DNA of 40,697 nucleotides. Origin: an uncultured bacterium. GTDB taxonomy: Bacteria; Myxococcota_A; UBA796. Shown here piece after piece: positions 1,408 through 29,973 of this stretch; the first letter of the stretch is position 1; every line of letters starts with the position of its first letter. The position numbers and the translations under genes are program-made. The stretch spans positions 1-40,697 of the forward strand of contig CAWVVG010000001.1 of assembly GCA_963932775.1 (NCBI GenBank), in the 5' to 3' direction. Below the pieces are notes generated by a model. It saw nothing but the letters and a program-made list of their open reading frames with translations, was not told the DNA's origin and did no database searches.

Positions 1408-1845
1408 TTATTGTCGCTCCAACTCGATTCTGCACAAGACGTCGCCGCTGGTTTGGTGGTCGATTTTTAAAGAGCGGCCCTCCCATGTGGTCGTGGGGTC
1501 CTCGCAACCGAAGCCAATGGATCCCAACGGACCCCCATCTGCGGTGCAAGAGTCAACACGGAGTATGACACCCCCATCGATGTTGCGTTCGGCGGAGCCA
1601 ATCGTACCGACCATCACGAAGTCGCACTCGATGTCATCGGTCTCGTCGTCATTGTCTTGGCGACAGGTCAGCGCATTGCTCATCCGTCCCTCGAATTCAG
1701 TGTCACCGAACTCGTTCATTTCAATGGTGAAGTCAGCGGGCCCCTTGCGGCCATCTTCGCATTTCATCTTGCCGGACCACTCGCCCTCAATGCCAGAACA
1801 AGCAGTAGCGAGGGCCAAGGAAATCATCAGGATTGTGCTGCGCAT
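1408..1845 (-). CDS. hypothetical lipoprotein (acidic, Cys-rich)
   Basis: 145-aa ORF. Signal peptide MRSTILMISLALATAC carries a lipobox (L-A-T-A-C). The stop lies 15 nt upstream of the glpD start on the same strand. Confidence 0.65.
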   Translation of the reverse strand: MRSTILMISLALATACSGIEGEWSGKMKCEDGRKGPADFTIEMNEFGDTEFEGRMSNALTCRQDNDDETDDIECDFVMVGTIGSAERNIDGGVILRVDSCTADGGPLGSIGFGCEDPTTTWEGRSLKIDHQTSGDVLCRIELERQ

Positions 1846-1901
1846 CGGTTCCTCCGAAGTTTGACTGACACATAACCGGGCCCTCGGGTTAGAGCGCGGC
1901 C

Positions 1902-2735
1902 ATGCCTGTGATCAGTTTGACTTCTCTCCACCCGAGCCTGTCTGCAGATGGTTCGGTCCTTCGAATCAACATCAATCATGGTTCCGTCAATGAGATGGGC
2001 TCTGTGGAATTGAAGGACTGGTCCGCATTGACCGCGCACTTGGAGGTTGGAACTGTAGGTGCATTGATCACTACCAGCGACAAGGTGACCCGCAGCGGGA
2101 AGTCGATCTTTATCGCTGGTGCGAATGTGACGGAGCGGGTGGGCTGGTCAGACGATCAGATAAAGACCCATGTTCGGTGGCAGCGGACGACCCTTGCAGG
2201 GCTTCGCCGGGCACCGGTGTTTCACGTCACGGTGGTGGATGGTCTGGCACTGGGGTGGGGCACCGAGTTTCTGCTCACTGCCGACTACCGGATCGCGACC
2301 AAGTCAGCTCGGTTTTCCCTGCCGGAGACGGGCATTGGAATCTTGCCGGGAGCCGGAGGTACGGGCGAGCTCTCTCGCATCATTGGCCCCAATCAGGCGC
2401 TCCGTCTGGGGATGACCGGTGAGCGGATCACGGGGGAGGAAGCTTTGCGCATCGGTCTGGTCGACGAATTGTTCGATAACAGCGACGAGGCCACGGCCCG
2501 GGCGGAGGAGCTGGCGCTGCTCGCTGCTCGACGCTCACCCACAGCAGTGGCGGCCTTCAAAAAGGGTGTCCTGGCTTCTCTGTCCATGGGTGAAGACGAA
2601 CGAACCGAGATGGAGGCCAGGGCTTATGAGCACTGCGTCGACACCGGTCAAGCCGCCATTGGTCGGGCCAATTTCAAGGCCATTACCGGTGGAGAGCGGG
2701 TCGAGTGGGGTCCGAGGACCAAGCTCGAGAGTTGA
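1902..2735 (+). CDS. enoyl-CoA hydratase/isomerase (crotonase) family protein
   Basis: 277-aa ORF with a crotonase core: FIAGANV..., GLALGWGTEFLLTADYRIA, FSLPETGIGILPGAGGTGELSRIIG, MTGERITGEEALRIGLVDELF. Confidence 0.85.
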   Translation: MPVISLTSLHPSLSADGSVLRININHGSVNEMGSVELKDWSALTAHLEVGTVGALITTSDKVTRSGKSIFIAGANVTERVGWSDDQIKTHVRWQRTTLAGLRRAPVFHVTVVDGLALGWGTEFLLTADYRIATKSARFSLPETGIGILPGAGGTGELSRIIGPNQALRLGMTGERITGEEALRIGLVDELFDNSDEATARAEELALLAARRSPTAVAAFKKGVLASLSMGEDERTEMEARAYEHCVDTGQAAIGRANFKAITGGERVEWGPRTKLES

Positions 2736-2736
2736 G

Positions 2737-3297
2737 CTACTCGCTCTTGAGGTTCACATTGAATTCGACGGACATGTCCGGGTAGAGCGTCGAGATAAAG
2801 ATGCTCGGGTCCGGGACATTGAAGTCGGTCCACTTGAAGGCATGTTTGCCGCTCAGCGCGAGGCCGCTGTCCGTAAAGCTGTAGGTCGCCGGTATGCTCA
2901 CATTCTTGGAGGTGTCTCGGATCTTTAGGCTGCCCTTTAGAACGACACTTCCGGTACCAGCACCGGTCTTAAGCCCTTCCACGCCACCTTCGATGCTGTT
3001 TACAGAGAAGGTGATGGTCGAAAACTTGTCCGACTCGAGGCAGAACTCGTGCATTTTGGTGTCACGTGGCCCCAGTGCGGTGGTCATGGACTTGGTCTGC
3101 ACGACCAATGAGCCCTTGAGCGCATCGGTGTCGAGGGAAGTGGAGAATGACTTCGCTTTGCCTTCAATCCCATGAAGAGACGCCGTGTTGTGGAAGGTCA
3201 CGGTGCCGGCGCTGTTGCCCTTGTACGTGCCCGCTTGGGCAAGTGGACTGAAGGCCGCGGAAGCAAGCAAGGAGAGAAAGGAAAAGGTTTTAAACAT
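2737..3297 (-). CDS. YceI-like (polyisoprenoid/lipid-binding) secreted protein
   Basis: ORF 2737-3342 trimmed to the internal ATG at 3297, giving MFKTFSFLSLLASAAFSPLAQAG (signal peptide). The body, ...VTFHNTASLHGIEGKAKSF...GSLKIRDTSKNVSIPATYSF...FKWTDFNV, resembles the YceI beta-barrel family. Confidence 0.75.
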   Translation of the reverse strand: MFKTFSFLSLLASAAFSPLAQAGTYKGNSAGTVTFHNTASLHGIEGKAKSFSTSLDTDALKGSLVVQTKSMTTALGPRDTKMHEFCLESDKFSTITFSVNSIEGGVEGLKTGAGTGSVVLKGSLKIRDTSKNVSIPATYSFTDSGLALSGKHAFKWTDFNVPDPSIFISTLYPDMSVEFNVNLKSE

Positions 3298-3352
3298 TTG
3301 GGTCCTCTTGGGTTCGCATAGGGGGTCGGCAGAAGGTACCATATTCGCAATT

Positions 3353-4411
3353 ATGTTGATTGCATCCGTTTCAGGGGCGCTCCCCGACCACTACTACGAC
3401 CAAGACGCATTGATTGCGGGCTTTCTTCAGAGCTGGTCGGAGCATCACCACAACCCTGATCGCCTCGTCCGACTCCACCAAGCGGTGCAGGTGGGTGGGC
3501 GGCATCTCGCACTTCCGATGGAGCGGTACCGGTCCCTTAGTTTTGGGGAGGCCAATGATGCATTCATTGAGGTTGGGACGGTCATCGGAGCCCGGGCAGT
3601 CGAAGACGCATTGGCTGCTGTGGGGCTTACCCCGAAAGATGTCGACGTTATCTTTACGACCACCGTCACAGGAATTGCCACACCTTCACTGGATGCACGC
3701 CTGGTGAACCGGCTGGGGTTGCGCACCGACGTAAAGCGGGTGCCCATGTTTGGGCTTGGGTGTGTCGCGGGCGCTGCGGGCACCGCCAGGCTTCATGATT
3801 ACCTCGAGGGGCACCCGAATGAAGTGGGCGTATTGCTCAGTGTGGAGTTGTGTTCCCTCACGCTTCAGCGAGGGGACTTCTCCATTGCCAACCTCATTGC
3901 CAGTGGACTGTTTGGTGACGGGGCTGCCGCGTTGGTCGGTGTGGGCGAGGAGCGGGCAACAAAGCTGGGCCTGACAGGACCGAGAGTCCAGGCCACGATG
4001 AGCCGATTCTACCCAGACACAGAGCGGGTAATGGGTTGGGATGTGAGCGATACGGGCTTTCAGATTGTGCTGGATGCTTCTGTTCCCGATGTGGTTCGAA
4101 CCCACATTCGCGCGGACGTCGACGGCTTCCTGGGCTCGCTTGGTTTGGGGCTGCAGGATGTGGCGACTTGGGTAGCCCATCCGGGTGGACCCAAGGTATT
4201 GACCGCCTTTGAGGAATGCCTGGAGCTGCCGCCGGATGCCTTAAAACGCACTTGGGTTTCATTGAACGATGTAGGCAATCTTTCGAGCGCCAGCGTGCTG
4301 ATGGTCTTGCGAGACACCCTCGCGGAGGCCACCCCGCCAGCAGGCAGTCATGGCATGCTGATGGCGATGGGGCCGGGCTTTTGCTCTGAGTTGGTGCTCC
4401 TTCAATGGTGA
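3353..4411 (+). CDS. type III polyketide synthase (chalcone/stilbene synthase superfamily)
   Basis: ORF 3185-4411 trimmed to ATG 3353 (MLIASVSGALPDHYYDQDAL). Active-site contexts are present: Cys in MFGLGCVAGAAG, His in WVAHPGGPKVL, Asn in NDVGNLSSASVLMVL, plus the C-terminal MGPGF. Confidence 0.9.
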   Translation: MLIASVSGALPDHYYDQDALIAGFLQSWSEHHHNPDRLVRLHQAVQVGGRHLALPMERYRSLSFGEANDAFIEVGTVIGARAVEDALAAVGLTPKDVDVIFTTTVTGIATPSLDARLVNRLGLRTDVKRVPMFGLGCVAGAAGTARLHDYLEGHPNEVGVLLSVELCSLTLQRGDFSIANLIASGLFGDGAAALVGVGEERATKLGLTGPRVQATMSRFYPDTERVMGWDVSDTGFQIVLDASVPDVVRTHIRADVDGFLGSLGLGLQDVATWVAHPGGPKVLTAFEECLELPPDALKRTWVSLNDVGNLSSASVLMVLRDTLAEATPPAGSHGMLMAMGPGFCSELVLLQW

Positions 4412-4932
4412 GCACCGCGACGGCTTACTTCGTGTTCATGGGACTGACGGGCATCGAGCGGCTTGTGGAGCTTCGGGTGGGGCGCCGAAACTACCAGTGG
4501 AGCATGTCTCAGGGCGGTGTGGAGTATGGCCAGGGCCACTGGCCTTGGATGGTGTTGCTGCACACGGGCTTCTTGGTGGGCTGTGTCGCAGAAGCATGGC
4601 TCTTTTCGCCACCGTTTCATCCCATCGTTGGACCCGCCATGTTGGTGTTGGCCGTCCTCTGCCAGACGCTTCGTTGGTGGTGCATCCGTACACTGGGGCA
4701 CCGCTGGAATCCGAGGGTCGTTGTGATTCCCGACACCGAGCGGGCAACGGGTGGCCCCTACCGGTTCTTGTCGCACCCCAATTATGTTGCCGTGGCCCTC
4801 GAGGGGGTAGCCTTGCCCATGATTTTCGGTGGATGGAGAACGGCCATCGCCTTTACCGTCCTGAATGGGTGGCTGATGCTTGTGCGAATCCGTTGCGAGA
4901 ATCAAGCCACATCACAGCTGAGGGTTCCGTGA
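4405..4932 (+). CDS. isoprenylcysteine carboxyl methyltransferase (ICMT)-family membrane methyltransferase
   Basis: 175-aa multi-TM ORF with the ICMT-type C-terminal motif GPYRFLSHPNYVAVALEGVALPMIFG. Its ATG overlaps the PKS stop (ATGGTGA, 4405-4411). Confidence 0.8.
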   Translation: MVSTATAYFVFMGLTGIERLVELRVGRRNYQWSMSQGGVEYGQGHWPWMVLLHTGFLVGCVAEAWLFSPPFHPIVGPAMLVLAVLCQTLRWWCIRTLGHRWNPRVVVIPDTERATGGPYRFLSHPNYVAVALEGVALPMIFGGWRTAIAFTVLNGWLMLVRIRCENQATSQLRVP

Positions 4933-5165
4933 ACCGACAACAGATTCAAGAAGAACTCTCTACCGTGGCCATCCGAGAATTGAAGCTGGAGGGTGAGCTG
5001 TCATCGGGTGAGTTGGCGGACCAGCTCGACAGTATGCAGCGACTCACACTGGTGGTAGCAATCGAGGACCACTTCAAGATTTGTTTCGATCCGGATGACG
5101 AGGAGCAGATCCGCGATGTGAGCGATCTGGTGGGCCTGATTCACCGAAAGCTGGGCGAGCGTTGA
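4929..5165 (+). CDS. stand-alone acyl carrier protein
   Basis: A GTG start at 4929 overlaps the upstream TGA (GTGA). The 78-aa product VNRQQIQEEL...ELADQLDSMQRLTLVVAIEDHF...LVGLIHRKLGER has the ACP helix II DSM/L serine motif. It is embedded in the tail of the longer spurious ORF 4497-5165. Confidence 0.75.
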   Translation: MNRQQIQEELSTVAIRELKLEGELSSGELADQLDSMQRLTLVVAIEDHFKICFDPDDEEQIRDVSDLVGLIHRKLGER

Positions 5166-6889
5166 TGGAAAGCACGCTGTACAGAGTCCTCCAGAGGGCG
5201 GCCTCACTCAACCTGGAGGGTGCGGGCTTTCGGTATCTGGACCGGCGAGAGCAGGCGGTCTTTCGAAGCTTTCCCGACCTCGCCTGCCGCGCTGGCCGTC
5301 TCGCAGCGGGCTTGGTCAAACAGGGGGTGACATCGGGCGACACGGTGGCCATCGTGTTGCCGACCACGCCTGAGTTCACCGACATTTTCTTCGCGTGCTG
5401 CCACATTGGAGCCATTCCAGTGCCCCTGTATCCACCGGTGCGACTCGGTCGCCTGGATGAGTACTTCGAGCGTACCGCGACCATGCTGAGCCAGGTCGAG
5501 GCCAAAATCATGGTGACCGATGCACGGGTCGGCAAGCTGATGGGTTCGGTTGTCGCTCGCTATCGGCCGCCTGCCGGAATGCATCGGGTGGATTCACTGT
5601 TGGAAGATGTGGCGTGTACACCCCAGCCACCAAAACCCGATGATGTGGCCATGGTGCAGTTCTCGTCCGGTACGACGGGAGCCCCCAAGCCGGTTGTCTT
5701 GACCCATCGGCAGGTGCTCTCCAACGCCAATGCGATTTTAGACATTGAGCCCGATGACGACGACTTCAGCCCCAGTGCGGTCAGTTGGCTGCCGCTGTAC
5801 CACGACATGGGACTCATTGGATGTGTAATCCCTGCGCTTATGTATCCGGCGGAACTGACCTTGATTCCCCCAGAAGCATTTCTCGCCAAGCCAGCGCTGT
5901 GGCTGCGTGCCATCAGTCGGTATCGGGGGCTCATTTCTCCCGCGCCGAACTTCGCCTATGCGCTCGCTGTGGAGCGAATACAGGATGATCAACTGGAGGG
6001 TGTCGATCTGTCCTGCTGGCGGTTTGCACTCAATGGGGCTGAGCCGACCAGTGCCGACACCATGCGAGCCTTCATTGACCGCTTCGCTGCTTGGGGACTC
6101 CGGCCGGAAGCCCTCACGCCCGTCTATGGGCTGAGTGAGGCGGCACTGGCTGTTACCTTTGGCGAAGCGGACGCACCCTTTTTGTCGCGGCACTTTGATG
6201 CCCAAGAACTCAGCGGTGGGCGCGCAGTCATTGTGGAGTCCGGGGCTGAGATATCGAGCGTTGGGCGCCCCCTTCGTGGGTTCGAGATCCAGATTCGAGA
6301 CGGCAGTGGGAGTGTGCTCTCCGATGGGCATATTGGTCGGCTGTGGGCCAGTGGGCCTTCGGTGATGGACCGCTACCTGGACGGCAGCCCGCCACCGAGA
6401 GACGGTGACTGGCTGGATACCGGCGATCTGGGCTTTGTCCTGGAAGAAGAGCTGTACATCACGGGTCGAGCAAAGGACGTGATCATCATCCGTGGCCGCA
6501 ATCACAATCCGCACACCTTGGAAGTACCCCTCGATACCGTCGATGGGGTTCGTACCGGGTGCAGTGCAGTGGTGTCGGAAATTCAAGGGGGTGGAGAGCG
6601 CATCTTTGTGTTCGTAGAGACCCGTGGTGAGGTTGCGGACGACCTCGCTGAGCGGTGTCGAGTGGCGGTTCGTGCTGCCACCGGTGTGGACCCAGATGTG
6701 GTCATTCCTCTTGCTGCGGGAACCTTGCCTCGGACATCGAGTGGTAAGATTCGCCGTTGTGAGACCATGGCACGCTGGCAGGCCGGCACCCTGGTAGCCC
6801 CCAAGGCAGTCACACCACTTCGCATGGCGGGCGCCCTCGCGCGCAGCGCTTGGTCTGAGTGGAATGCTCGGCATAGTCCCAGTGATTGA
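5165..6889 (+). CDS. fatty acyl-AMP ligase (FAAL-type adenylating enzyme)
   Basis: ATG at 5165 overlaps the ACP stop (TGATG). Adenylation core motifs present: FSSGTTGAPKPVVLTH, WLPLYHDMGLIG, NGAEP, YGLSEA, WLDTGDLGF, GRAKDVIIIRGRNHNP, PRTSSGKIRR. The N-terminal layout is FadD32/FAAL-like. Confidence 0.85.
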   Translation: MESTLYRVLQRAASLNLEGAGFRYLDRREQAVFRSFPDLACRAGRLAAGLVKQGVTSGDTVAIVLPTTPEFTDIFFACCHIGAIPVPLYPPVRLGRLDEYFERTATMLSQVEAKIMVTDARVGKLMGSVVARYRPPAGMHRVDSLLEDVACTPQPPKPDDVAMVQFSSGTTGAPKPVVLTHRQVLSNANAILDIEPDDDDFSPSAVSWLPLYHDMGLIGCVIPALMYPAELTLIPPEAFLAKPALWLRAISRYRGLISPAPNFAYALAVERIQDDQLEGVDLSCWRFALNGAEPTSADTMRAFIDRFAAWGLRPEALTPVYGLSEAALAVTFGEADAPFLSRHFDAQELSGGRAVIVESGAEISSVGRPLRGFEIQIRDGSGSVLSDGHIGRLWASGPSVMDRYLDGSPPPRDGDWLDTGDLGFVLEEELYITGRAKDVIIIRGRNHNPHTLEVPLDTVDGVRTGCSAVVSEIQGGGERIFVFVETRGEVADDLAERCRVAVRAATGVDPDVVIPLAAGTLPRTSSGKIRRCETMARWQAGTLVAPKAVTPLRMAGALARSAWSEWNARHSPSD

Positions 6890-7922
6890 TGTCGTGGTCG
6901 TTGGGGGAGGTCCTGCCGGCCTCTCTGCTGCCATCATGGCCAAGCAAGCCGGCCTCGATGTGGTCGTCTTTGAGGCGAAGGCTGGCACCATAGATAAAGC
7001 CTGTGGAGAGGGGCTGATGCCCAAAGCTCTGTTGGCCTTGGACCGAATGGGCGTGGCCCGTCCAGCTGGGATGCCATTCAATGGCATTCGGTATGTGGAC
7101 GATTCAGGGATGGCTCAAGCAACATTCTCTATGGGGCCTGGACTGGGTGTTCGACGGACGGAGCTTTATAGAGTCCTTCGAAGTCGTGTGGATGAGTTGG
7201 GAATCTCCGTGAGGGTCCAGCGTGTCAAGGAGTGGAGTCAGGACGATGCTGGCGTCACGGTGGAGGGCTGCAGGGCCCGCTGGATGTTTGCGGCCGATGG
7301 TCTCCGTTCACCCATTCGGGCACAGCTGGGACTGGGGGCAGAGCCTCGATTTCCTCCCCGCCTGGGCATCCGGCGTCACTTTGCCGTCGCACCTTGGGCA
7401 GAGTTTGTGGAGATTCACTGGAGCCCATTGGCGGAAGCTTATGTGACACCGGTGGGCCCAAATGAGGTTGGCGTGGCCATCCTGTATTCCCCAGATGCGC
7501 AACCACCAGGGGCGGGCGATCCCTTCTCTCGGTGGATGAACGCTTTTCCGGCATTGTCAGCCCGACTCGGAGAGCCGGTATCTGAAGCCCGGGGGGCCGG
7601 GCCTTTCGAGCAGCGTGTGAAGACGCCGATGGAAGGCAGGATTCTGTTGATTGGAGATGCGGCAGGCTACCTCGATCCGATCACAGGCGAAGGAATTCGT
7701 TTGGGCTTGTATACAGCCAACGCCGCGGTTCAGGCCGTGGTTTCGAGTCGGATAGAGTCCTACCCAGCCATGTGCCGTCCGGGGCTTCGTCGCTACTGGA
7801 TTCTCACCTCAGGCCTTCTATTTATTCGGCGTCGAGACTGGCTCCGGCGTCGATTGGTTCCATTTCTGGCTCGGTTTCCACGCATCTTTCGGTTTGCATT
7901 GGATTCCCTCAACCACGCCTGA
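6864..7922 (+). CDS. FAD-dependent oxidoreductase (geranylgeranyl-reductase / aromatic-hydroxylase-like flavoprotein)
   Basis: Has DVVVVGGGPAGLSAAIMAKQAGLDVVVFE (GxGxxG plus acidic end), KACGEGL, and GDAAGYLDPITGEGI. The start is either ATG 6864 or GTG 6882; both overlap the ligase 3' end. Confidence 0.8.
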   Translation: MLGIVPVIDVVVVGGGPAGLSAAIMAKQAGLDVVVFEAKAGTIDKACGEGLMPKALLALDRMGVARPAGMPFNGIRYVDDSGMAQATFSMGPGLGVRRTELYRVLRSRVDELGISVRVQRVKEWSQDDAGVTVEGCRARWMFAADGLRSPIRAQLGLGAEPRFPPRLGIRRHFAVAPWAEFVEIHWSPLAEAYVTPVGPNEVGVAILYSPDAQPPGAGDPFSRWMNAFPALSARLGEPVSEARGAGPFEQRVKTPMEGRILLIGDAAGYLDPITGEGIRLGLYTANAAVQAVVSSRIESYPAMCRPGLRRYWILTSGLLFIRRRDWLRRRLVPFLARFPRIFRFALDSLNHA

Positions 7923-7939
7923 GTTCGGTACCATGGGGC

Positions 7940-8971
7940 ATGAAGCAACCGAGCTTATTGTGGAAGGCACTGATGTTGGCGGCACTCCCTGCGGCGGTAT
8001 TGTTTGCGACCGCGTGGATGGTAAGCAGACCCTACGGAGTCTGGTTGGCCCTGGCCGAACCCTTGGTCTTGGCGCTTGGCCTCTACGGTGTGGTCTGGGC
8101 GTTAATGGAGCGACGGATGTTGGCTTGTGGCGCCGTTGCCACATCGATGATCGCGGTCACAGTCGTTCTCCACGAGGGTCCCGCAACCGAGGTGGCATTG
8201 CAGGGCGGTTCGGAGGAAATCCGAGCGCTGCGGGGGTGCTCGGTGTTGGGCAAGCCCGCGGAGGGCCCAGTACGGCTCCTCACATGGACGGTGGACCACG
8301 GGCCCCACCTGATCGATGACATCAAACAGGTGATCGCTACCCATCCCGACATTGTGTTGCTTAACGGAACCGACAATCCAGACATCGGCGCCCAGCTCCA
8401 AGAGGCCATGGATGGGGAGGTGAAATTCTTCAAAGGAAGCATCTCAAGCGGGGGCTCGATGGTGGTGACCCGGGGAAGTTTTCAGTTTTGCGGTGGAGAA
8501 AAGGATGAATGGTTGGTGGACTTACCGTCCATGGAGCCCAATGGTGCGCAGGCAATGTTGGGGTTTCCGTATGTGCCGAACATCGGGGTTGTGCCGCTGG
8601 TCTTTACACACCTGGACTCACCCGCAGGAGTGCTGGACGCCTCAGCCTGGGCCGAGCGTGTAGTGAAAGGTGCGGAGACTGTTGCTGCAACGGTGAGGAC
8701 GGTTGGCGGTCGAGGTGTGGTGTTGGTCGGAGACATGCAGGCACCGTCCTCGGCTTCTGTGGCATCTCGGTTTTGGGTGGCTTCTGGGCTGACTCTAGCC
8801 GTCACGGGTCCGAACTGGCCCAATGACGTTGCAGGTATTCCTTTCTTGAGTCAGCACGCGCTGGACCAAGTTTGGGTGGGTTCGGGTTGGCGGGTACAGG
8901 CCACTCGAGTCTTGGAAATCGGAGATCAGCGCAGGTCGGCGGTGATGGTGGACTTGGTCGCTGCCCGGTGA
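7940..8971 (+). CDS. membrane protein with a degenerate endonuclease/exonuclease/phosphatase (EEP)-like domain
   Basis: ORF 7772-8971 trimmed to ATG 7940 (MKQPSLLWKALMLAALPAAVLF), followed by about 3 hydrophobic helices. The soluble part has EEP-like strands VRLLTWTV, HPDIVLLNGT, VVLVGDMQAP. The product assignment is tentative. Confidence 0.55.
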   Translation: MKQPSLLWKALMLAALPAAVLFATAWMVSRPYGVWLALAEPLVLALGLYGVVWALMERRMLACGAVATSMIAVTVVLHEGPATEVALQGGSEEIRALRGCSVLGKPAEGPVRLLTWTVDHGPHLIDDIKQVIATHPDIVLLNGTDNPDIGAQLQEAMDGEVKFFKGSISSGGSMVVTRGSFQFCGGEKDEWLVDLPSMEPNGAQAMLGFPYVPNIGVVPLVFTHLDSPAGVLDASAWAERVVKGAETVAATVRTVGGRGVVLVGDMQAPSSASVASRFWVASGLTLAVTGPNWPNDVAGIPFLSQHALDQVWVGSGWRVQATRVLEIGDQRRSAVMVDLVAAR

Positions 8972-9010
8972 AGCGGAGCAGTGAGGTGCACGAGTCGGTG
9001 CAGGATGACC

Positions 9011-9046
9011 AAAAAAAAGGCCGCCCGAAGGCGGCCTGATTTATTT
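9011..9046. terminator. bidirectional intrinsic terminator between convergent genes
   Basis: A8 tract (9011-9018), stem AGGCCGCC (9018-9025), loop CGAA, stem GGCGGCCT (9030-9037), then the T-rich TGATTTATTT. It sits between the 8971 stop (+) and the 9058 stop (-). Confidence 0.75.
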
Positions 9047-9057
9047 AGAGCCTCAGC

Positions 9058-9795
9058 TTAGAGCCAGCCATCGATCATGGCGTCGCTCAAGCGACCTGGA
9101 TGACCACGCCAGACGATCTTGCCGCCCTTGACTACCGCAGCAGCTGGGATGCCTGATACGTTGAAGTGCTTGGAGAGCTCTCCATCTTCCTTGGCGGTTG
9201 GGTAGCTCACCTTGTTTTCTTTAATGAACTCGACGACCTTCTCTTCGGTGGCAGAGCGGGTGATCTTGGTCAGACCAACCATCTGAATCTTGCCTGTGTA
9301 CTTGTCCCAAGTAGCCTGCATCTTCGGCACCTCGCGACGGCAGTGGGGGCACCAGATTTCCCAGAACACAAGGAGTGTGGGCTTCTCGGATGCGAAGTCG
9401 ATGGTGGTCTCACCGGTGTACCATTTCTCGACACTGAGGCTGGAGGGAGCGGCCTTGCCGATCACCTCGAGCTCACGCTCGATCTTGCGGGCACGGCGGT
9501 ATGCAGTGGTCGTGCCGTACTTGGCCTTGAGTTCACCAAGCTTGGCGCGTGCAACTTCGGTGTCACCATCGCGGACTGCCTTTCCAACTTCTTCGTACAG
9601 AGCGGCAGCAGCTTTCTCTGCCTTCTCATCTTTTGGAGCTGCGGTTTTGCCACCAGTCGCTGCGGCAGCCGCGCCGGCTTCCACCTTTTCTTCAAGTGAA
9701 GCCACCTTTTCTTCGAGGGCTTTCACTCGATCGGCCGTCGCGCAGCCAGCGATAAACGCGAAGGCGCTGAAAATAAGTACACGGTTGAGGGTCAT
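9058..9795 (-). CDS. TlpA/ResA-like thiol-disulfide oxidoreductase lipoprotein
   Basis: ORF trimmed to ATG 9795 (MTLNRVLIFSAFAFIAGC, lipobox), with an AAGGAGAG RBS just upstream. Contains a coiled-coil/Ala-rich linker and a thioredoxin fold with the WCPHC active site (LLVFWEIWCPHCRREVP). Confidence 0.8.
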   Translation of the reverse strand: MTLNRVLIFSAFAFIAGCATADRVKALEEKVASLEEKVEAGAAAAATGGKTAAPKDEKAEKAAAALYEEVGKAVRDGDTEVARAKLGELKAKYGTTTAYRRARKIERELEVIGKAAPSSLSVEKWYTGETTIDFASEKPTLLVFWEIWCPHCRREVPKMQATWDKYTGKIQMVGLTKITRSATEEKVVEFIKENKVSYPTAKEDGELSKHFNVSGIPAAAVVKGGKIVWRGHPGRLSDAMIDGWL

Positions 9796-9909
9796 AGTTG
9801 CTCTCCTTGAGAAGATGGGCGGATATTCCGCGTTGGATTGGCAGGCCACGTATCGATCAAGCCGCCAGCCGGCAACCTAGGGACCAACCTTTGTGGGTTT
9901 GGCCTTGGC

Positions 9910-11125: not shown

Positions 11126-11563
11126 GTGCCATTCGAACCCATACCACTGCTGATAGTGATCGATGACGAGCGAGGGTGGTGCATGGGTGTAGTGCCCCGC
11201 CTGACCGAGCTGCTGGAGAACCGTGGCTTCGTGGTGAGCCTGCATCGGTTTCAGGATGGGCCCGTCCGCTTGGATGGCCACCTCGCCGTGGTGGTGGGCG
11301 CTCCGACCTTTGGTCTTGGGTTGCGCAACCGGGCGCCGAGCGACGACTTTACGGCCTTCATTGAGGCCATTGATGGACTCGATGAGATCCAAATGGGTGT
11401 GTTTACCGTGTACCAAGCCTGGCCAGGAGATGCTCTGCAGCGCCTTAAAGGGCTCGCCCTGCGGGTTGGCTCTCGGTTTGTAGCAGCGCATGGGTACCCA
11501 CGATGGGACCTGACCAAAGGAGAACACATCCTGCCAGCCGAATGCATGGTGCGCGTGCGATGA
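11126..11563 (+). CDS. flavodoxin-fold protein (no obvious FMN phosphate loop)
   Basis: 145-aa ORF with a GTG start and GC3-rich codon use. An alternating beta/alpha pattern (LLIVIDD..., LENRGFVVSLH, HLAVVVGAPTFGLG, MGVFTVYQ) resembles Flavodoxin_5/HemG-like proteins. Its stop overlaps the downstream ATG (ATGA, 11560-11563). Confidence 0.5.
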   Translation: MPFEPIPLLIVIDDERGWCMGVVPRLTELLENRGFVVSLHRFQDGPVRLDGHLAVVVGAPTFGLGLRNRAPSDDFTAFIEAIDGLDEIQMGVFTVYQAWPGDALQRLKGLALRVGSRFVAAHGYPRWDLTKGEHILPAECMVRVR

Positions 11564-13227
11564 AAACCCCCAACAACTCCGAGGTTTTTGCGGCATCGCT
11601 GCATTCGGCTGAGAATCGACTTCGTGCGGTCGGGCTTTCGGGGCGGAATGCATACGCGGCCTTGTGTCGAAACCTGGCCAAGCGCTTGAACATACCTGCG
11701 CACTTGTGGATCGATGGCCCAGATGCACCGGCCGATGCCCGCTTAGATCGGATTCCGCTCACTTCGGAGTTGGACCTGTTTGGGCTGGCCTACGAACGGT
11801 TCTTTCCTGAGGTGTTTAAGGCAGAGCACGGGCAGTTCTTCACGCCTCGACCATTGGTGGAGCTGATGACGGATATGGCCGAAGTCCGGCCAGGAGACCG
11901 GGTTCTTGATCCGACCTGTGGCTCAGGCACCTTCCTTGTGGTGGCGCAAAATCGTGGTGCGGAGGTGGAAGGCATCGAAGTGGATCCGGAGCTTGTGGCC
12001 TTGTGCCGGCTGAATCTGGCGCTTCATGGTGCCGACCCTCGGTCGGTCAGACAGGCCGATTTGTTCCGTGATCGGCCCACTGAACAGTGGGATGTGATCC
12101 TCGCCAACCCGCCTTTCTCGGTCAAGATTACTGACCCCATGGCCTTGCAGCACTTCAGTCTGGCCCACGGTCGGGGCCGGGTGGCTTCCGACACCCTGTT
12201 TCTTCAGGCCGCAGCCGACCGGCTTCGGCCCGGAGGGAGGCTCGCCGTTGTGCTCCCGCGCTCGATTCTCTCCAATGACAGTTACGCCTGGTTGCGTTCG
12301 TGGCTCGCAGTTCGCTTCGTTCGAAGGGCCGTCATCTCTTTGCCGGAGGGTGTGTTTCGTCCCTTTGGTGGGACGACGGCTCGAGCGGCTGTGGTGGTTT
12401 TAGAGAAACACCCTGCACCCGCACGGCCTTTTGCCGTAGGAATCGTAGAACACCCTGGCTACGATCCGACTCGGAAGACCTTTCGGCGTACAGATGTCGA
12501 TGAATTGTCCGAGCTTAGAATCGCGTGGTCTCGCAAAGCCATGTTGACTGCTCCAGTGGATTCCCGGTCATGGGTGCCGGAAGAAATCCTTGAGACCTCA
12601 CCGATTCCTGAAGATGTACCGGTACTCACAATGGGGGAGGTCGCTCCGCTTGCCGCGGTTCAGTCCTTTCGCCCCTCCGACCGTGGCCCGGATAGCTTTA
12701 CCGAAATTGACCTCGCAGATGTGGACAAACAGACCGGCGAGGTGGCTGGAGCTAGAGTCCGCATCGGTGCCGAATTCAAGGGGAGTAAGACCCCCTTTGA
12801 TGAAGGTGATCTGTTGTTCGCACGGATTCGTCCCAGCCTGAACAATGTGGTGATCGCCCGCCGACCGCATCCCGACCTACCCGGTGACCTTGCGGGGAGC
12901 TCAGAGTGGATCCGTCTGCAGCCGGAACGGCAAGCCCACTTTGCGCTAGTGGCCGCCCGGTCGAGCTTTGTGAGGGATCAACTCAAGTCAACAGGGGGGC
13001 AGACTCGACCCCGGATCAAGGCGGATGATCTCCCCGGAATCCTTGTGCCGGACCCGGGTAGTGAAAACCGAAGCACCATCGACCGCATCGTGGAGCAGGC
13101 CATGACCGCTCGGCTGGTCGCCCGCCGCCAACTTCATCAAGTCGCGGCACTGTACGAGGCTTTTGGTCTCGGAGAGTTGGACGAGCGTTCCTTGGCCGTC
13201 GGACTCGCGGCCCTCGACGAGGGGTAG
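11560..13227 (+). CDS. gamma-class N6-adenine DNA methyltransferase fused to a single HsdS-type target recognition domain
   Basis: ORF 11503-13227 trimmed to ATG 11560. Has GQFFTPRPLVELM, motif I VLDPTCGSGTFLV, and motif IV VILANPPFS. The C-terminal half has HsdS-like signatures (EGDLLFARIRPSLNNV, GSSEWIRLQP, GGQTRPRIKADDLPGILVPDP) and ends in a coiled-coil tail. Confidence 0.85.
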   Translation: MKTPNNSEVFAASLHSAENRLRAVGLSGRNAYAALCRNLAKRLNIPAHLWIDGPDAPADARLDRIPLTSELDLFGLAYERFFPEVFKAEHGQFFTPRPLVELMTDMAEVRPGDRVLDPTCGSGTFLVVAQNRGAEVEGIEVDPELVALCRLNLALHGADPRSVRQADLFRDRPTEQWDVILANPPFSVKITDPMALQHFSLAHGRGRVASDTLFLQAAADRLRPGGRLAVVLPRSILSNDSYAWLRSWLAVRFVRRAVISLPEGVFRPFGGTTARAAVVVLEKHPAPARPFAVGIVEHPGYDPTRKTFRRTDVDELSELRIAWSRKAMLTAPVDSRSWVPEEILETSPIPEDVPVLTMGEVAPLAAVQSFRPSDRGPDSFTEIDLADVDKQTGEVAGARVRIGAEFKGSKTPFDEGDLLFARIRPSLNNVVIARRPHPDLPGDLAGSSEWIRLQPERQAHFALVAARSSFVRDQLKSTGGQTRPRIKADDLPGILVPDPGSENRSTIDRIVEQAMTARLVARRQLHQVAALYEAFGLGELDERSLAVGLAALDEG

Positions 13228-26653: not shown

Positions 26654-27469
26654 TCAGCCTTGGTACCGAGGCCTATGGGCGTACACATTGGAGAGCTTGG
26701 TGTGGACCAAGGCCTCTTCCTTTTCAGTCACGATCTCGGTGAGTCCATGTTGGAGCAGCAACGCCTCAATACGGGCGAGACGTCCATCGATATCGTGGAC
26801 CTCAACCACCACCTGATCGACGGCTTTCCAGTGGTCCTCGGTCAGGCCCAAAAGGGCTTCTTCTTCAGCACCTTCACAGTCGATCTTGAGCAGATCGATT
26901 TGGTCGACCTTTAACTCTATGATCATCTCAGAGAGTGTTCGGAGCTCGCACTGAACCTCGATCGGGGCGTGGGTCAACCACCGGGCGATGGGACCGGCCA
27001 ATATGCGTGGTACGAACTTCGCGTACCACATGGGTGCGCTCTGGGCATTTCCAACCACAGCCTCCTCCAGCGCACCGGCCTGCCCATCCCAGTCCGTCAG
27101 GTGGGCAGTCGAGAGGGATGGAGCGTTCGGATAGAAGGTGAAGGTGGTCTCCCCACGTGCGCGCGCGATTCCATATGGGAGCACTTGAGCCCCCTCCCAG
27201 GGCTCAAGGTTGAGCTCGGTACAGGCCCGAATGGTAGGGATAGGCTCGAAAGCGATGATCCGTAAGTCTCCGTCACAACGCTGAGCCATACGAACCCCGA
27301 ACATGCCGATATTCGCGCCCACATCGAACACCGTATCACCAGGTTTGACCTGGATACCGTGTTTCATATAGCCCTCAATATGCGAATCCAGGACCTTGGC
27401 TTCGGCTACTTTCAGGCAGTACACCTGTGTGCCGTCTCCCAACGTTGCGATCGTCATGCTCATAGCCAA
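26654..27469 (-). CDS. FkbM-family SAM-dependent methyltransferase
   Basis: 271 aa: VFDVGANIGMFG, IIAFEPIP, TTFTFY, IDLLKIDCEGAEEEAL. Confidence 0.85.
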   Translation of the reverse strand: MAMSMTIATLGDGTQVYCLKVAEAKVLDSHIEGYMKHGIQVKPGDTVFDVGANIGMFGVRMAQRCDGDLRIIAFEPIPTIRACTELNLEPWEGAQVLPYGIARARGETTFTFYPNAPSLSTAHLTDWDGQAGALEEAVVGNAQSAPMWYAKFVPRILAGPIARWLTHAPIEVQCELRTLSEMIIELKVDQIDLLKIDCEGAEEEALLGLTEDHWKAVDQVVVEVHDIDGRLARIEALLLQHGLTEIVTEKEEALVHTKLSNVYAHRPRYQG

Positions 27470-27585: not shown

Positions 27586-29973
27586 ATGAGCAGTATTTCT
27601 TTATGTGTAATAGCGCGGGACACCGCACCTTCTCTTCCTGACTGTATACGGTCCGCCGAGACATTGGTGAATGAGGTCATAGTCCTCGACTCGGGCCGCT
27701 TAAACGGCTCAGGCGATTGGGCTGTGAGCAATGGTGCCAAGATGATTCCGTATCAGTGGACCGGTAACGTCGCTGAAGCGAGAACCGCCGCGGTACGTCA
27801 TGCGACGGGTGATTGGGTCTTGGTGTTGGATGCAGACGAGGCACTCGCACCGGGGTCGGCTGAGGTCATTCGTGAAGCCTTGAACCGAGGTGGCATGGAC
27901 TGTGGGTTCTTGCCGCTGCTTCGGGACTGTGGCCTGGACCAGGCGATTGACAGTGCGCCGCGTCTGATGCGTCGAAGCATTGATCTTCACTGGGATGAAG
28001 ACGATGGAGAAAGTGTGAGCTCATGGATTGCCATGCGTGCTCGCCGGGTCCGTAGCATCGATGCCCCCATCGTTAAGGTGGCTGCAGTTGCTCCGGTGGC
28101 CTCGGTGCCCGCTGCACACAAGGACGAAACAATTTTTGAGGTTCCTACGGGCGAGTTGTTCTCGGCCCCAGGTGCGGTTCAGGTGAGTACACAGGCTGTG
28201 ATAGAGGCCGACACTCAGCCGTTCGATCCGGTCGCTGTACTCCTCGGAGACGCGTGGGAGCATTACCACGCGGACAACCTCGATGGTGCGTGGGCCGCAG
28301 TCGAAAATATTTGGGGCCAGATCGAGTCAGACCATCCGGACTTGGTCCAAGTGGCGACCCTTCGGGCTCACATCAAGATTCTCGGTGGGGAATACCGTGA
28401 GGCACTCGAGAGCATTGGTCGGGTATTGGAGTGGGGCATTCATCATCCAAATATGGACATGCTTCAAGGTGTAGTGGCAGAGAATACCGCCATGACATCC
28501 GTAAACTATGCCCATCATCATCAGTGCCTGGAGCGCGCCGAGGCTGCTTTTAGTGCATGCATTGGGTACTCATCCGAGATCAGCGCCCAAGACAGTCTTC
28601 CGGGCGTCACAACCTGGGGAGCGAACACCCGCTTGGGGACCGTTCGACTGGCCCGTGGGGATGTGGATGGAGCTCGGCTCGCATTCGAAGCGGCCCTTGA
28701 AGCAGACCCGGAGCATGCTGAAGCATCTCTTGGGTTGATGGAGTGCAAGCTGGAATCTGGCGACGCGGCTTCGATCATGGCCCCACTTGTGGAGTACATG
28801 GAAGCAAACTTGGCCGATGCGTGGATGTTGGCCGCCGCTGCTTGCGAGGAACTGGGCTCAGTTGAAGATGCCTTGTTGTTCACGAAACGGGCCAACGAGC
28901 TTCACGAGGGTGGACTTCAAGCCTCGGCACATCGGAACTTCCGTATGGCTGACTTGTTCGCCATGTCGGGCTTGTATGAGGGAAAGGCCATCGCAGGACC
29001 CGGGCCGTGGGGAGCGATCGGCGCCATCGTGTCACGCCAACCATTGCCGGCCCTTGCCTCGCCTCGCCCTGTCGATGGACCCAAGGTGGTTCGGTTTGTC
29101 ACTCATTGTGTGGCCGCCGGCTGGCCCGACATTATCGGCACCATGCTGGAACCCCGAGCCGACCAGGTGGCGCCCGGCATCAGCGAGTTGGTTCGCCGTA
29201 CGCTTCAAGCCCTTGGCGCTGAAGCTGAAGAGCAGACGTCACAGACTCCGGTGTTTCTTGGTGGAACCTGGGACTCAGGGAGTCGAACGCTCCAAGGCAT
29301 GCTGGACAGTCACAGTCGTCTCGAAGCCGGAGAAGAAACCAAGCTTATTCCCATCATGTGCTCACTGCGCAACGAATGGTGGAGTGGCATGGCCCTGGAC
29401 TTGGAGGCCGCAGGCATTGGAGAGAAGCAGCTCGATGGTGCGGTGAAAGCATTCATTGAGACCCTGATCTCCGGTGCGACCCCGAGTCCGGATCTTCGCT
29501 CTGTAGAGACCACACCCCACACGCTCCTTCATATGAGCACGATGGCATCGATCTTTCCGGCGGCTCGTTTTATTCACGTGGTCCGAGATGGACGCGACGT
29601 TGTGGCCAGCTTGCTTGAGCGCGACTGGATGGACCCGTCCACCGGAGAAAAGGTCTGGTGTTGTCAGACACCCAAGGCCGCTGCCGAGTACTGGGTTCAT
29701 GTGGTCGATGCGATTCGCGAACAAGGAGCCCGCATTCCCGGACGGTATCTCGAGGTGCAATATTCTGAGCTTATCGAACACCCAGAAGCGGTGATGCGGA
29801 TTGTGATGGCCTTCCTTGGCGAACGCTGGGAAGCGGCTGTGCTGGACAACATCGTCGAGCAGTCTGAGGCTGCGATGCAGAACGAAGAAATGATCGACCG
29901 GATCATCGACGACACGCCCCGATACATTCCGCCGGAGCCGGTGTTGGAGCCCGATCACATTTCGGCCAAATAG
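27586..29973 (+). CDS. multidomain protein: GT2-like glycosyltransferase N-domain, TPR region, C-terminal sulfotransferase domain
   Basis: 795 aa with a GGAGG RBS. N-terminus: ISLCVIARDTAPSLPDCIRSA...VIVLDSG...ARTAAVRHATGDWVLVLDADEAL (GT2 with a DxD-type DADE). The middle is TPR-like and helical. C-terminus: VFLGGTWDSGSRTL (5'-PSB-like), RFIHVVRDGRDVVAS (3'-PB-like), YLEVQYSELIEHPEAVMRIVMAFLG. Confidence 0.8.
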   Translation: MSSISLCVIARDTAPSLPDCIRSAETLVNEVIVLDSGRLNGSGDWAVSNGAKMIPYQWTGNVAEARTAAVRHATGDWVLVLDADEALAPGSAEVIREALNRGGMDCGFLPLLRDCGLDQAIDSAPRLMRRSIDLHWDEDDGESVSSWIAMRARRVRSIDAPIVKVAAVAPVASVPAAHKDETIFEVPTGELFSAPGAVQVSTQAVIEADTQPFDPVAVLLGDAWEHYHADNLDGAWAAVENIWGQIESDHPDLVQVATLRAHIKILGGEYREALESIGRVLEWGIHHPNMDMLQGVVAENTAMTSVNYAHHHQCLERAEAAFSACIGYSSEISAQDSLPGVTTWGANTRLGTVRLARGDVDGARLAFEAALEADPEHAEASLGLMECKLESGDAASIMAPLVEYMEANLADAWMLAAAACEELGSVEDALLFTKRANELHEGGLQASAHRNFRMADLFAMSGLYEGKAIAGPGPWGAIGAIVSRQPLPALASPRPVDGPKVVRFVTHCVAAGWPDIIGTMLEPRADQVAPGISELVRRTLQALGAEAEEQTSQTPVFLGGTWDSGSRTLQGMLDSHSRLEAGEETKLIPIMCSLRNEWWSGMALDLEAAGIGEKQLDGAVKAFIETLISGATPSPDLRSVETTPHTLLHMSTMASIFPAARFIHVVRDGRDVVASLLERDWMDPSTGEKVWCCQTPKAAAEYWVHVVDAIREQGARIPGRYLEVQYSELIEHPEAVMRIVMAFLGERWEAAVLDNIVEQSEAAMQNEEMIDRIIDDTPRYIPPEPVLEPDHISAK

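Follow-up and report, generated by a model that had tools for sequence, protein, structure and literature searches.

A probable ftp-type phenolic-lipid operon in an uncultured marine bacterium of the Myxococcota

Gene organization of the locus

We analysed a 40,697-nucleotide stretch of DNA (hereafter the window) from an uncultured bacterium of the lineage Myxococcota_A, UBA796 (assembly GCA_963932775.1, contig CAWVVG010000001.1), and in it a run of five genes with a predicted role in the synthesis of a methylated phenolic lipid. All five lie on the forward strand: a type III polyketide synthase (PKS, 3353-4411), a methyltransferase (4405-4932), a stand-alone acyl carrier protein (ACP, 4929-5165), a fatty acyl-AMP ligase (FAAL, 5165-6889) and a flavoprotein (6882-7922). 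The locus is, with good probability, an ftp-type phenolic-lipid operon and an orthologue in kind of ftpABCDE of Myxococcus xanthus, which was reportedly described by Hayashi et al. in 2011 (ChemBioChem 12:2166). The five protein families, their diagnostic residues, the gene order, the coupling of the genes and their wide conservation are directly established.

Each gene overlaps the next. The methyltransferase ATG at 4405 and the PKS stop codon TGA at 4409-4411 share the seven nucleotides ATGGTGA (4405-4411); the methyltransferase and ACP genes overlap in GTGA (4929-4932), the ACP and ligase genes in TGATG (5163-5167), and the ligase stop codon (6887-6889) falls inside the flavoprotein open reading frame (ORF). 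An earlier note on this DNA, made from the sequence alone, had described the same four junctions and read the block as one operon. The operon reading is supported by the overlapping genes and by a gene order conserved across phyla, from which co-transcription would follow.

Three of the genes figure in the ORF list as 4405-4932, 5162-6889 and 6864-7922. For the flavoprotein, the ATG at 6864 gives the longest ORF and a 26-nt overlap with the ligase gene; the GTG at 6882 gives an 8-nt overlap and a protein of 346 aa. Position 6882 is kept as a start codon, ATG or GTG, in three related loci (L081, L083 and L085), where the ATG at 6864 is not kept. Judged by these relatives, translation almost certainly starts at GTG 6882, and the upstream ATG is an unlikely start. 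The overlap itself, as given in the earlier note, thus stands; its 26-nt version does not, and the 8-nt version, offered there as the second choice, has the conserved start codon.

The type III PKS and the methyltransferase

The PKS (352 aa) matches the Pfam families Chal_sti_synt_C (2e-19) and FAE1_CUT1_RppA (2e-16). Its closest match in the PDB is Mycobacterium tuberculosis Pks11, aligned end to end (7e-110), and the start at ATG 3353 agrees with the N-termini of Pks11 and of the homologues. The triad C137/H276/N309 aligns with C138/H277/N310 of Pks11 and is invariant in our alignment of homologues (A1); C137 corresponds to the cysteine mutated in the Pks11 C138S entry 4jat. More than 8000 homologues score below 1e-40, many of them labelled alkylresorcinol or alkylpyrone synthase. 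By these alignments the enzyme would belong to the FtpA/SrsA/Pks11 clade. A DpgA-type function was rejected, the DpgA model giving 183 bits against a cut-off of 425.

A single tryptophan bears on the ring type. W229 aligns with W230 of Pks11 and is likewise invariant in alignment A1. The equivalent residue (ArsB W281, MMAR_2474 W230) is essential for resorcinol formation in ArsB, and the same tryptophan is conserved in FtpA, SrsA, PKS10 and PKS11 (PMC5916927). W229 would favour aldol cyclisation to a resorcinol; we take it as indicative of the ring type, not as proof.

The methyltransferase (175 aa), an SrsB/FtpB-like member of the ICMT family (Pfam ICMT, 1.9e-23), has no solved homologue that sequence searches could detect. 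Its hydrophobic character along the entire sequence marks it as an integral membrane enzyme. Its identity to the gene directly 3' of the PKS gene in the five-gene and three-gene operons described below is 42-59%, reaching 56-59% for the second gene of the Streptomyces loci compared.

Acyl carrier protein and fatty acyl-AMP ligase

Taken alone, the 78-aa ACP is a marginal match to PP-binding (6e-4, 20.4 bits against a cut-off of 20.8), while a profile of 14 syntenic ACP ORFs matches solved ACPs at 1.3e-14. In the corresponding alignment (A5), residues L33-D34-S35 are invariant; Ser35, encoded at 5031-5033, would carry the phosphopantetheine. Wherever the methyltransferase and ligase genes are close neighbours in the ligase-bearing loci examined, an ACP-sized ORF with the motif L-D-S-[LMIV] lies between them, as in Corallococcus, Pyxidicoccus and Archangium among others. 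We read the 78-aa protein as a stand-alone, FtpC-like ACP. Two further loci have the ligase gene about 2.5-5 kb 3' of the methyltransferase gene: in L007 the ACP gene has moved along with it, and in L048 the ligase gene alone is displaced and the ACP gene is still beside the methyltransferase gene. Both arrangements are insertions into the operon.

The ligase (574 aa; Pfam AMP-binding, 1e-61) has as its top NCBIfam model the fatty acyl-AMP ligase PRK09192. The best FAAL models reach 400 bits, and FAAL models make up most of its ten best, with two non-FAAL models beside them. Against the PDB, the first 18 matches are all FAALs or FAAL-type loading domains, after which the values drop by about 18 orders of magnitude to a 4-coumarate-CoA ligase (1e-26).

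The features by which FAALs reject CoA, namely a pocket blocked by bulky Trp, Met and Phe side chains, a specific helix, and a Pro/Thr gate of the alternative pocket, have been defined (PMC8460268). Residues W208, M215, F263, P210, P91 and T67 of the window ligase correspond to W224, M231, F279, P226, P107 and T83 of the Escherichia coli enzyme EcFAAL (3PBK), and the FAAL-specific helix segment, residues 234-243, aligns with EcFAAL without gaps. The FAAL-specific insertion occupies approximately residues 333-362 (about 6161-6250, forward strand), between the YGLSE and SVGRP motifs. There, the window ligase and five ftp-type ligases have 16-24 residues beyond three CoA ligases (alignment A2; the comparators are enzymes from fetched loci, typed by NCBIfam), and the segment is also present in EcFAAL 3PBK. 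The earlier note had set a CoA-forming ligase without this insertion as the finding that would speak against its scheme; both the insertion and the CoA-rejecting residues are present. Because these residues are kept and the insertion sets it apart from CoA ligases, we assign the ligase as an FtpD-like FAAL with a blocked canonical CoA pocket. No CoA ligase is encoded among the window proteins scanned.

A FAAL together with a stand-alone ACP need not serve the PKS beside it: many lipid pathways of unrelated kinds have such a pair (PMC8460268), and the two genes might work for another lipid, their position here owed to chance or to shared regulation. Yet both are inserted after the methyltransferase gene and before the flavoprotein gene, stop and start codons overlapping at the junctions; 24 genomes from several phyla, among the best 80 loci of the scan described below, have them at just this place, and the feeding of FtpA by FtpD and FtpC has been published (PMC5707447). 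We regard such a separate role as extremely improbable. The delivery of the starter by FAAL and ACP to the type III PKS, as proposed in the earlier note, gains support by analogy from the identity of the two proteins and from the published FtpD/FtpA pair.

Flavoprotein

The flavoprotein matches FAD_binding_3 (1.5e-18) and the geranylgeranyl reductase superfamily model GG-red-SF (TIGR02032; 9e-34), the latter at 117.4 bits under a family cut-off of 158.8. Among solved structures, the nearest are mainly class A aromatic hydroxylases and halogenases, with one geranylgeranyl reductase (GGR). Over its full length it is 44-53% identical to the third gene product of actinobacterial PKS-methyltransferase-flavoprotein operons, those of Streptomyces included. 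Five motifs are invariant across the five-gene and three-gene operons (alignment A7): GxGPxGL, DKACGEG, ADG, EAYVTP and GDAAGY..TGEG.

Could the last enzyme be a GGR-type reductase that saturates an unsaturated alkyl or prenyl side chain, and not a ring hydroxylase? GG-red-SF is its best NCBIfam model at 117 bits, digeranylgeranylglycerophospholipid reductase 3oz2 is among its profile matches, and the invariant DKACGEG contains a cysteine, as in GGRs. The score nevertheless stays under the cut-off, and pentachlorophenol monooxygenase, MHPCO and PnpA, all hydroxylases of phenols or other aromatics, score equally well or better. Moreover, the protein is in one family with the third gene product of srsABC-type operons, whose published function is hydroxylation, and the locus has no prenyltransferase gene. 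We find a reductase at this step improbable.

By identity and shared motifs, the "GGR-like" flavoprotein and SrsC belong to one family, which the present locus helps to show. The earlier note had named a geranylgeranyl-reductase-like flavoprotein beside SrsC; given 44-53% identity to the third gene of the Streptomyces operons and all the invariant motifs in common, the two are not separate kinds of protein. The preferred assignment is a SrsC/FtpE-type FAD monooxygenase, proposed by analogy with SrsC. All five gene assignments of the earlier note are otherwise borne out, by Pfam and NCBIfam models, the triad alignment with Pks11, the FAAL residues and the ACP profile.

Conservation of the operon

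We scanned 185,579 species genomes by PKS alignment and retained the best 80 loci from the first 600 stretches, of which 63 were evaluable, that is, with enough downstream sequence. The highest PKS identity in this sample, which does not contain M. xanthus, is 66%. Genes for PKS, methyltransferase, (ACP), FAAL and flavoprotein follow each other as in the window in 24 of the 63 evaluable loci. Among them are Corallococcus, Pyxidicoccus, Archangium, Myxococcaceae metagenome-assembled genomes (MAGs), Archangiaceae and other Myxococcota, and also Acidobacteriota, Thermoanaerobaculia and MAGs labelled Proteobacteria. A three-gene version, PKS-methyltransferase-flavoprotein, is about as frequent (25/63); with the exception of L020, L056 and L076, all of these loci are from Actinomycetota, including Streptomyces, Planomonospora, Nocardioides and Mycolicibacterium. 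The window thereby documents the spread of the FAAL/ACP-primed version beside the three-gene actinobacterial one. Because the gene order is conserved across phyla, the PKS-methyltransferase-ACP-FAAL-flavoprotein arrangement is not due to chance.

Closer relatives (L081-L087) were taken from contig look-ups, outside the genome scan. Their PKSs are 70-84% identical to that of the window and come from marine metagenomes, including a Tara Oceans MAG named "Deltaproteobacteria bacterium" (GCA_002707085.1); the nearest database relatives of the host are MAGs labelled Deltaproteobacteria or Myxococcota. These relatives have the entire neighbourhood: an enoyl-CoA hydratase gene, a YceI-like gene on the opposite strand, the five genes and a sixth one. 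In L087, the PKS (4579-5472) and the flavoprotein (8345-8983) are called as truncated proteins of 297 and 212 aa, which may reflect frameshifts, a faulty assembly or an operon that is decaying in the population concerned.

Proposed pathway

We now propose a pathway for the locus, in which acyl transfer, ring type, methylation site, hydroxylation and the product itself are drawn from characterised homologues. The FAAL would adenylate a long-chain fatty acid and, its canonical CoA pocket being blocked, load the 78-aa ACP beside it with the acyl group, at the phosphopantetheine arm. The PKS would take the acyl-ACP as starter and add three malonyl units, one of them possibly methylmalonyl. With its resorcinol-type tryptophan, it would then close the ring by aldol condensation to an alkylresorcylic acid or an alkylresorcinol, alkylpyrones being likely derailment products, by-products or alternative products. 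The SrsB-like membrane methyltransferase of the ICMT family would methylate the ring; the SrsB step is said, in the title of a paper by Nakano from 2012, to be a decarboxylative O-methylation. Finally, the SrsC-like FAD monooxygenase would hydroxylate the ring to a hydroquinone, which would oxidise in the membrane to an alkyl-methoxy-benzoquinone. How long the chain is, whether methylmalonyl-CoA is used and in what state the ring ends up are not readable from the sequence.

Counterparts are found in the literature. The FAAL FtpD produces an acyl-ACP that FtpA takes as substrate (PMC5707447), and MxFAAL (UniProt Q1CXX0) loads MxACP (Q1CXW9) in vitro (PMC8460268). The alkylresorcylic acid cluster of M. 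xanthus consists of a PKS, a methyltransferase, an AMP-dependent synthetase and a monooxygenase, and an acidobacterial cluster (Mor1) has the same ORF organisation with identities of 58/54/54/47% (PMC5006271). The srsABC genes encode a PKS, an ICMT methyltransferase and a monooxygenase for the methylation and hydroxylation of alkylresorcinols (PMC6669644, PMC13608877). Both M. xanthus, with its FtpA products, and Streptomyces griseus oxidise alkylresorcinols to alkylquinones (PMC10896814). This type III PKS cluster is, in addition, among the five most conserved biosynthetic gene clusters (BGCs) of Myxococcota (PMC12766979). The methylated phenolic lipid predicted in the earlier note is thus in keeping with the ICMT methyltransferase, the resorcinol-type PKS and these homologous systems.

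Several points weigh against the pathway as drawn. Pks11, the closest solved homologue of the PKS and itself a bearer of the tryptophan, is named an alpha-pyrone synthase, and catalogues enter the myxobacterial cluster as an alkylpyrone BGC (PMC12766979). Among curated models, the flavoprotein scores best, though below cut-off, with that of the geranylgeranyl reductase superfamily; no solved structure is close to it (E of about 1e-18 to 1e-20 for the nearest), and the proposed hydroxylase chemistry has homology to SrsC as its one source. The likeness to ftpABCDE was judged through sister genera and published descriptions. Finally, a scan for sigma-70 consensus promoters gave 0 matches, under the mean of shuffled sequences, and co-transcription is read from the gene arrangement.

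The first of these points leads to a different product from the same architecture: the physiological products could be long-chain alkylpyrones, formed by lactonisation and O-methylated by the ICMT enzyme as in Bacillus subtilis BpsAB, where BpsB is an ICMT-like methyltransferase. Pks11 was deposited as a PKS of alpha-pyrone synthesis, the myxobacterial cluster is assigned to the alkylpyrone entry BGC0001831 (PMC12766979), and the same paper, citing Hug 2019, has alkylpyrones isolated from M. xanthus. However, W229 is the tryptophan linked to resorcinol formation (PMC5916927), and the retention of a translationally coupled SrsC-type hydroxylase gene suits a step from resorcinol to quinone and fits a pyrone less well. 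The reported oxidation of FtpA products to alkylquinones by M. xanthus (PMC10896814) points the same way. Alkylpyrones as the main products are therefore possible, though in our judgement unlikely, and the resorcinol-to-quinone route is preferred.

Sixth gene, YceI-like neighbour and operon boundaries

The earlier note closed the block at 7922; the co-directional genes continue past this point. After a spacer of 17 nt, a sixth gene (7940-8971, forward strand) encodes a protein of 343 aa with four predicted N-terminal helices (residues 5-79) followed by an endonuclease/exonuclease/phosphatase (EEP) domain (Pfam Exo_endo_phos, 1.3e-5). The helices are predicted to span the membrane, which would make this a membrane-anchored EEP protein. 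Its AlphaFold model (pLDDT 75.8, pTM 0.79) matches, in a Foldseek search of the PDB, 4ruw, Tdp2, nocturnin and neutral sphingomyelinase (4e-11 to 1e-8, probability 1.0); the modelled domain has the EEP alpha/beta sandwich fold. In the alignment of its homologues (A3), the strand-2 motif DIV(L/V)LNGTD has no glutamate, and the last 30 residues contain no invariant histidine. The protein apparently lacks the canonical metal-binding Glu and the C-terminal catalytic His of EEP enzymes.

Homologues of the sixth protein form 7 clusters in 5.8 billion proteins, and those examined are all at the same position. The gene lies 3' of the flavoprotein gene in L081, L083, L085 and L087, overlapping it in L085. 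The sixth protein is 40-50% identical where the PKS is 70-84% identical, which indicates faster evolution than that of the PKS. By these matches the gene appears confined to the marine lineage of the window, in which the forward-strand unit probably carries it too.

Downstream, an intrinsic terminator at 9018-9037 is bidirectional, with an 8-bp stem of 7 G-C pairs and a T-run on each strand. It closes both the forward-strand unit and a convergent thioredoxin-like gene, and is the only strong terminator-like site within 1800-9300.

On the other side, the PKS gene is flanked by a divergent gene for a YceI-like protein (2737-3297, reverse strand; 186 aa when counted from ATG 3297; its signal peptide ends in AQA; Pfam YceI, 7.8e-15). 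The sixth gene, the terminator and this YceI-like gene had all been missed in the earlier note. The position of the YceI-like gene is kept in L081-L087, and YceI genes also lie directly 3' of ftp-type or related operons in L003, L010, L013, L014, L035, L076 and L079. Several loci of Acidobacteriota and two PKS-flavoprotein loci of Acidiferrales (L076, L079) have the YceI gene directly 3' of the flavoprotein gene and co-directional with it; L003, a Myxococcota MAG, has it on the other strand. Apart from YceI, no Pfam family recurred in a census of downstream ORFs. An ORF-only census is noisy in high-GC genomes, and candidates from both strands were then scanned against Pfam.

Judged by its signal peptide and family, the YceI-like protein would be a secreted lipid-binding protein and is a candidate accessory part of the system. 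We speculate that it and the sixth protein handle the lipid product, which makes the pair candidate handlers of polyketide quinones. A broader suggestion is that the operon has grown in this lineage by a YceI protein and an EEP protein apparently devoid of the catalytic His, for the handling, modification or export of a lipid or quinone, with YceI as a carrier shared across phyla; we put it forward as doubtful.

The start codons of the YceI-like and PKS genes are separated by a divergent intergenic region of 55 nt (3298-3352), where a promoter may be supposed by inference only. A TAnCAT hexamer lies 12 nt 5' of the PKS ATG and is kept, by sequence comparison, in the window and in L081, L083 and L085; no Shine-Dalgarno sequence is present in 3298-3352. 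This placement suggests a near-leaderless PKS transcript. Neither Rfam families nor tRNAs were found anywhere in the window, which therefore holds no recognisable riboswitch or leader RNA.

Other genes in the window

The G+C content is about 0.59 and uniform along the window, and the flanking genes are housekeeping ones: pyruvate kinase, argG, argH, cytochrome c maturation genes and M16 peptidases. An origin as a horizontal island was rejected, G+C and skew being uniform; the locus is chromosomal.

An enoyl-CoA hydratase gene (1902-2735, forward strand) lies upstream in the lineage of the window. A 54%-identical one divergently adjoins the PKS gene in the distant MAG L026 (about 9078-9900, reverse strand), and a partial one occurs in L002 (at about 2597); this gene may be a recurrent neighbour or a coincidence.

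Further downstream, a 795-aa fusion of a family-2 glycosyltransferase, TPR repeats and a sulfotransferase domain is encoded at 27586-29973 (forward strand), adjoined by a gene for an FkbM-type methyltransferase (26654-27469, reverse strand). An N6-adenine DNA methylase of 574 aa (11503-13227, forward strand) has the same relative position in L081 and L083; no restriction partner for it was identified among the ORFs scanned.

Comparison with known systems

Type III PKSs that take ACP-bound fatty acyl starters are also found in arsABCD of Azotobacter vinelandii and bpsAB of B. subtilis (PMC5707447). There, the starter comes from a dedicated type I FAS (fatty acid synthase) in the case of ars and from the housekeeping FAS in that of bps, whereas the window has a FAAL and a stand-alone ACP; neither of the two systems has a flavoprotein.

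Cyanobacterial hidABC and planctomycetal methyltransferase-oxidoreductase-PKS operons combine, like the window, a type III alkylresorcinol synthase with both a methyltransferase and an FAD oxidoreductase (PMC10896814). Their order is reversed, with the PKS last, and they have neither FAAL nor ACP. The planctomycetal 'S. ferox' operon has a gene for a lipid/isoprenoid-binding protein (PMC10896814), which recalls the YceI neighbour of the window.

In mycobacteria, Pks11 (structures 4jao and 4jat) is the closest solved enzyme, a full-length match that has the triad and the tryptophan in common with the window PKS; it is described as making methyl-branched alkylpyrones in vitro. The products of the Pks10/Pks11 polyketide-quinone system, reportedly described by Anand in 2015, are long-chain alkyl phenolics or quinones, as expected here, while the gene context differs.

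Closer in organization is srsABC of S. griseus, reportedly described by Funabashi in 2008 and Nakano in 2012, together with the actinobacterial operons of the same type. The window has homologues of all three of their proteins in the same order, with identities to the Streptomyces loci of 58-61% for the PKS, 56-59% for the methyltransferase and 46-53% for the flavoprotein, and the chemistry expected is likewise the formation of an alkylresorcinol, its methylation and its hydroxylation to a quinone. Operons of the srs type lack both ACP and FAAL and start from acyl-CoA, whereas the window has ACP and FAAL genes between the methyltransferase and flavoprotein genes. These two genes interrupt the three-gene unit; the locus works in part like srs and yet is outside the three-gene type. 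From this comparison, the ftp gene content can be read as three srs-type genes plus an ACP-FAAL pair placed between the second and the third.

The closest counterpart is ftpABCDE of M. xanthus, with the same five families in the same order and orientation as the window. The earlier note had inferred that the locus combines ACP-tethered starter delivery with methylation and a flavoprotein step, and had thought the product possibly undescribed. This combination is not new, and an undescribed product is not supported: an ftp-type cluster already includes a methyltransferase and a flavoprotein (PMC5006271, PMC10896814), and the same five genes stand in the same order in Myxococcaceae genomes. Biochemical work on this type of pathway goes back to 2011, and the type is found here in several phyla beyond Myxococcota; the locus has little discovery value in this respect. 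Compared with the Myxococcaceae orthologues of Corallococcus, Pyxidicoccus and Archangium, the PKS is about 58-60% identical, the methyltransferase 50%, the FAAL 47-50% and the flavoprotein 41-43%, similar in range to the 58/54/54/47% given for Mor1 and M. xanthus (PMC5006271). The window differs from ftp in its uncultured marine host of 59% G+C, and in having the sixth gene, with its transmembrane helices and EEP domain, and the divergent YceI-like gene, both peculiar to it relative to the Myxococcaceae loci examined.

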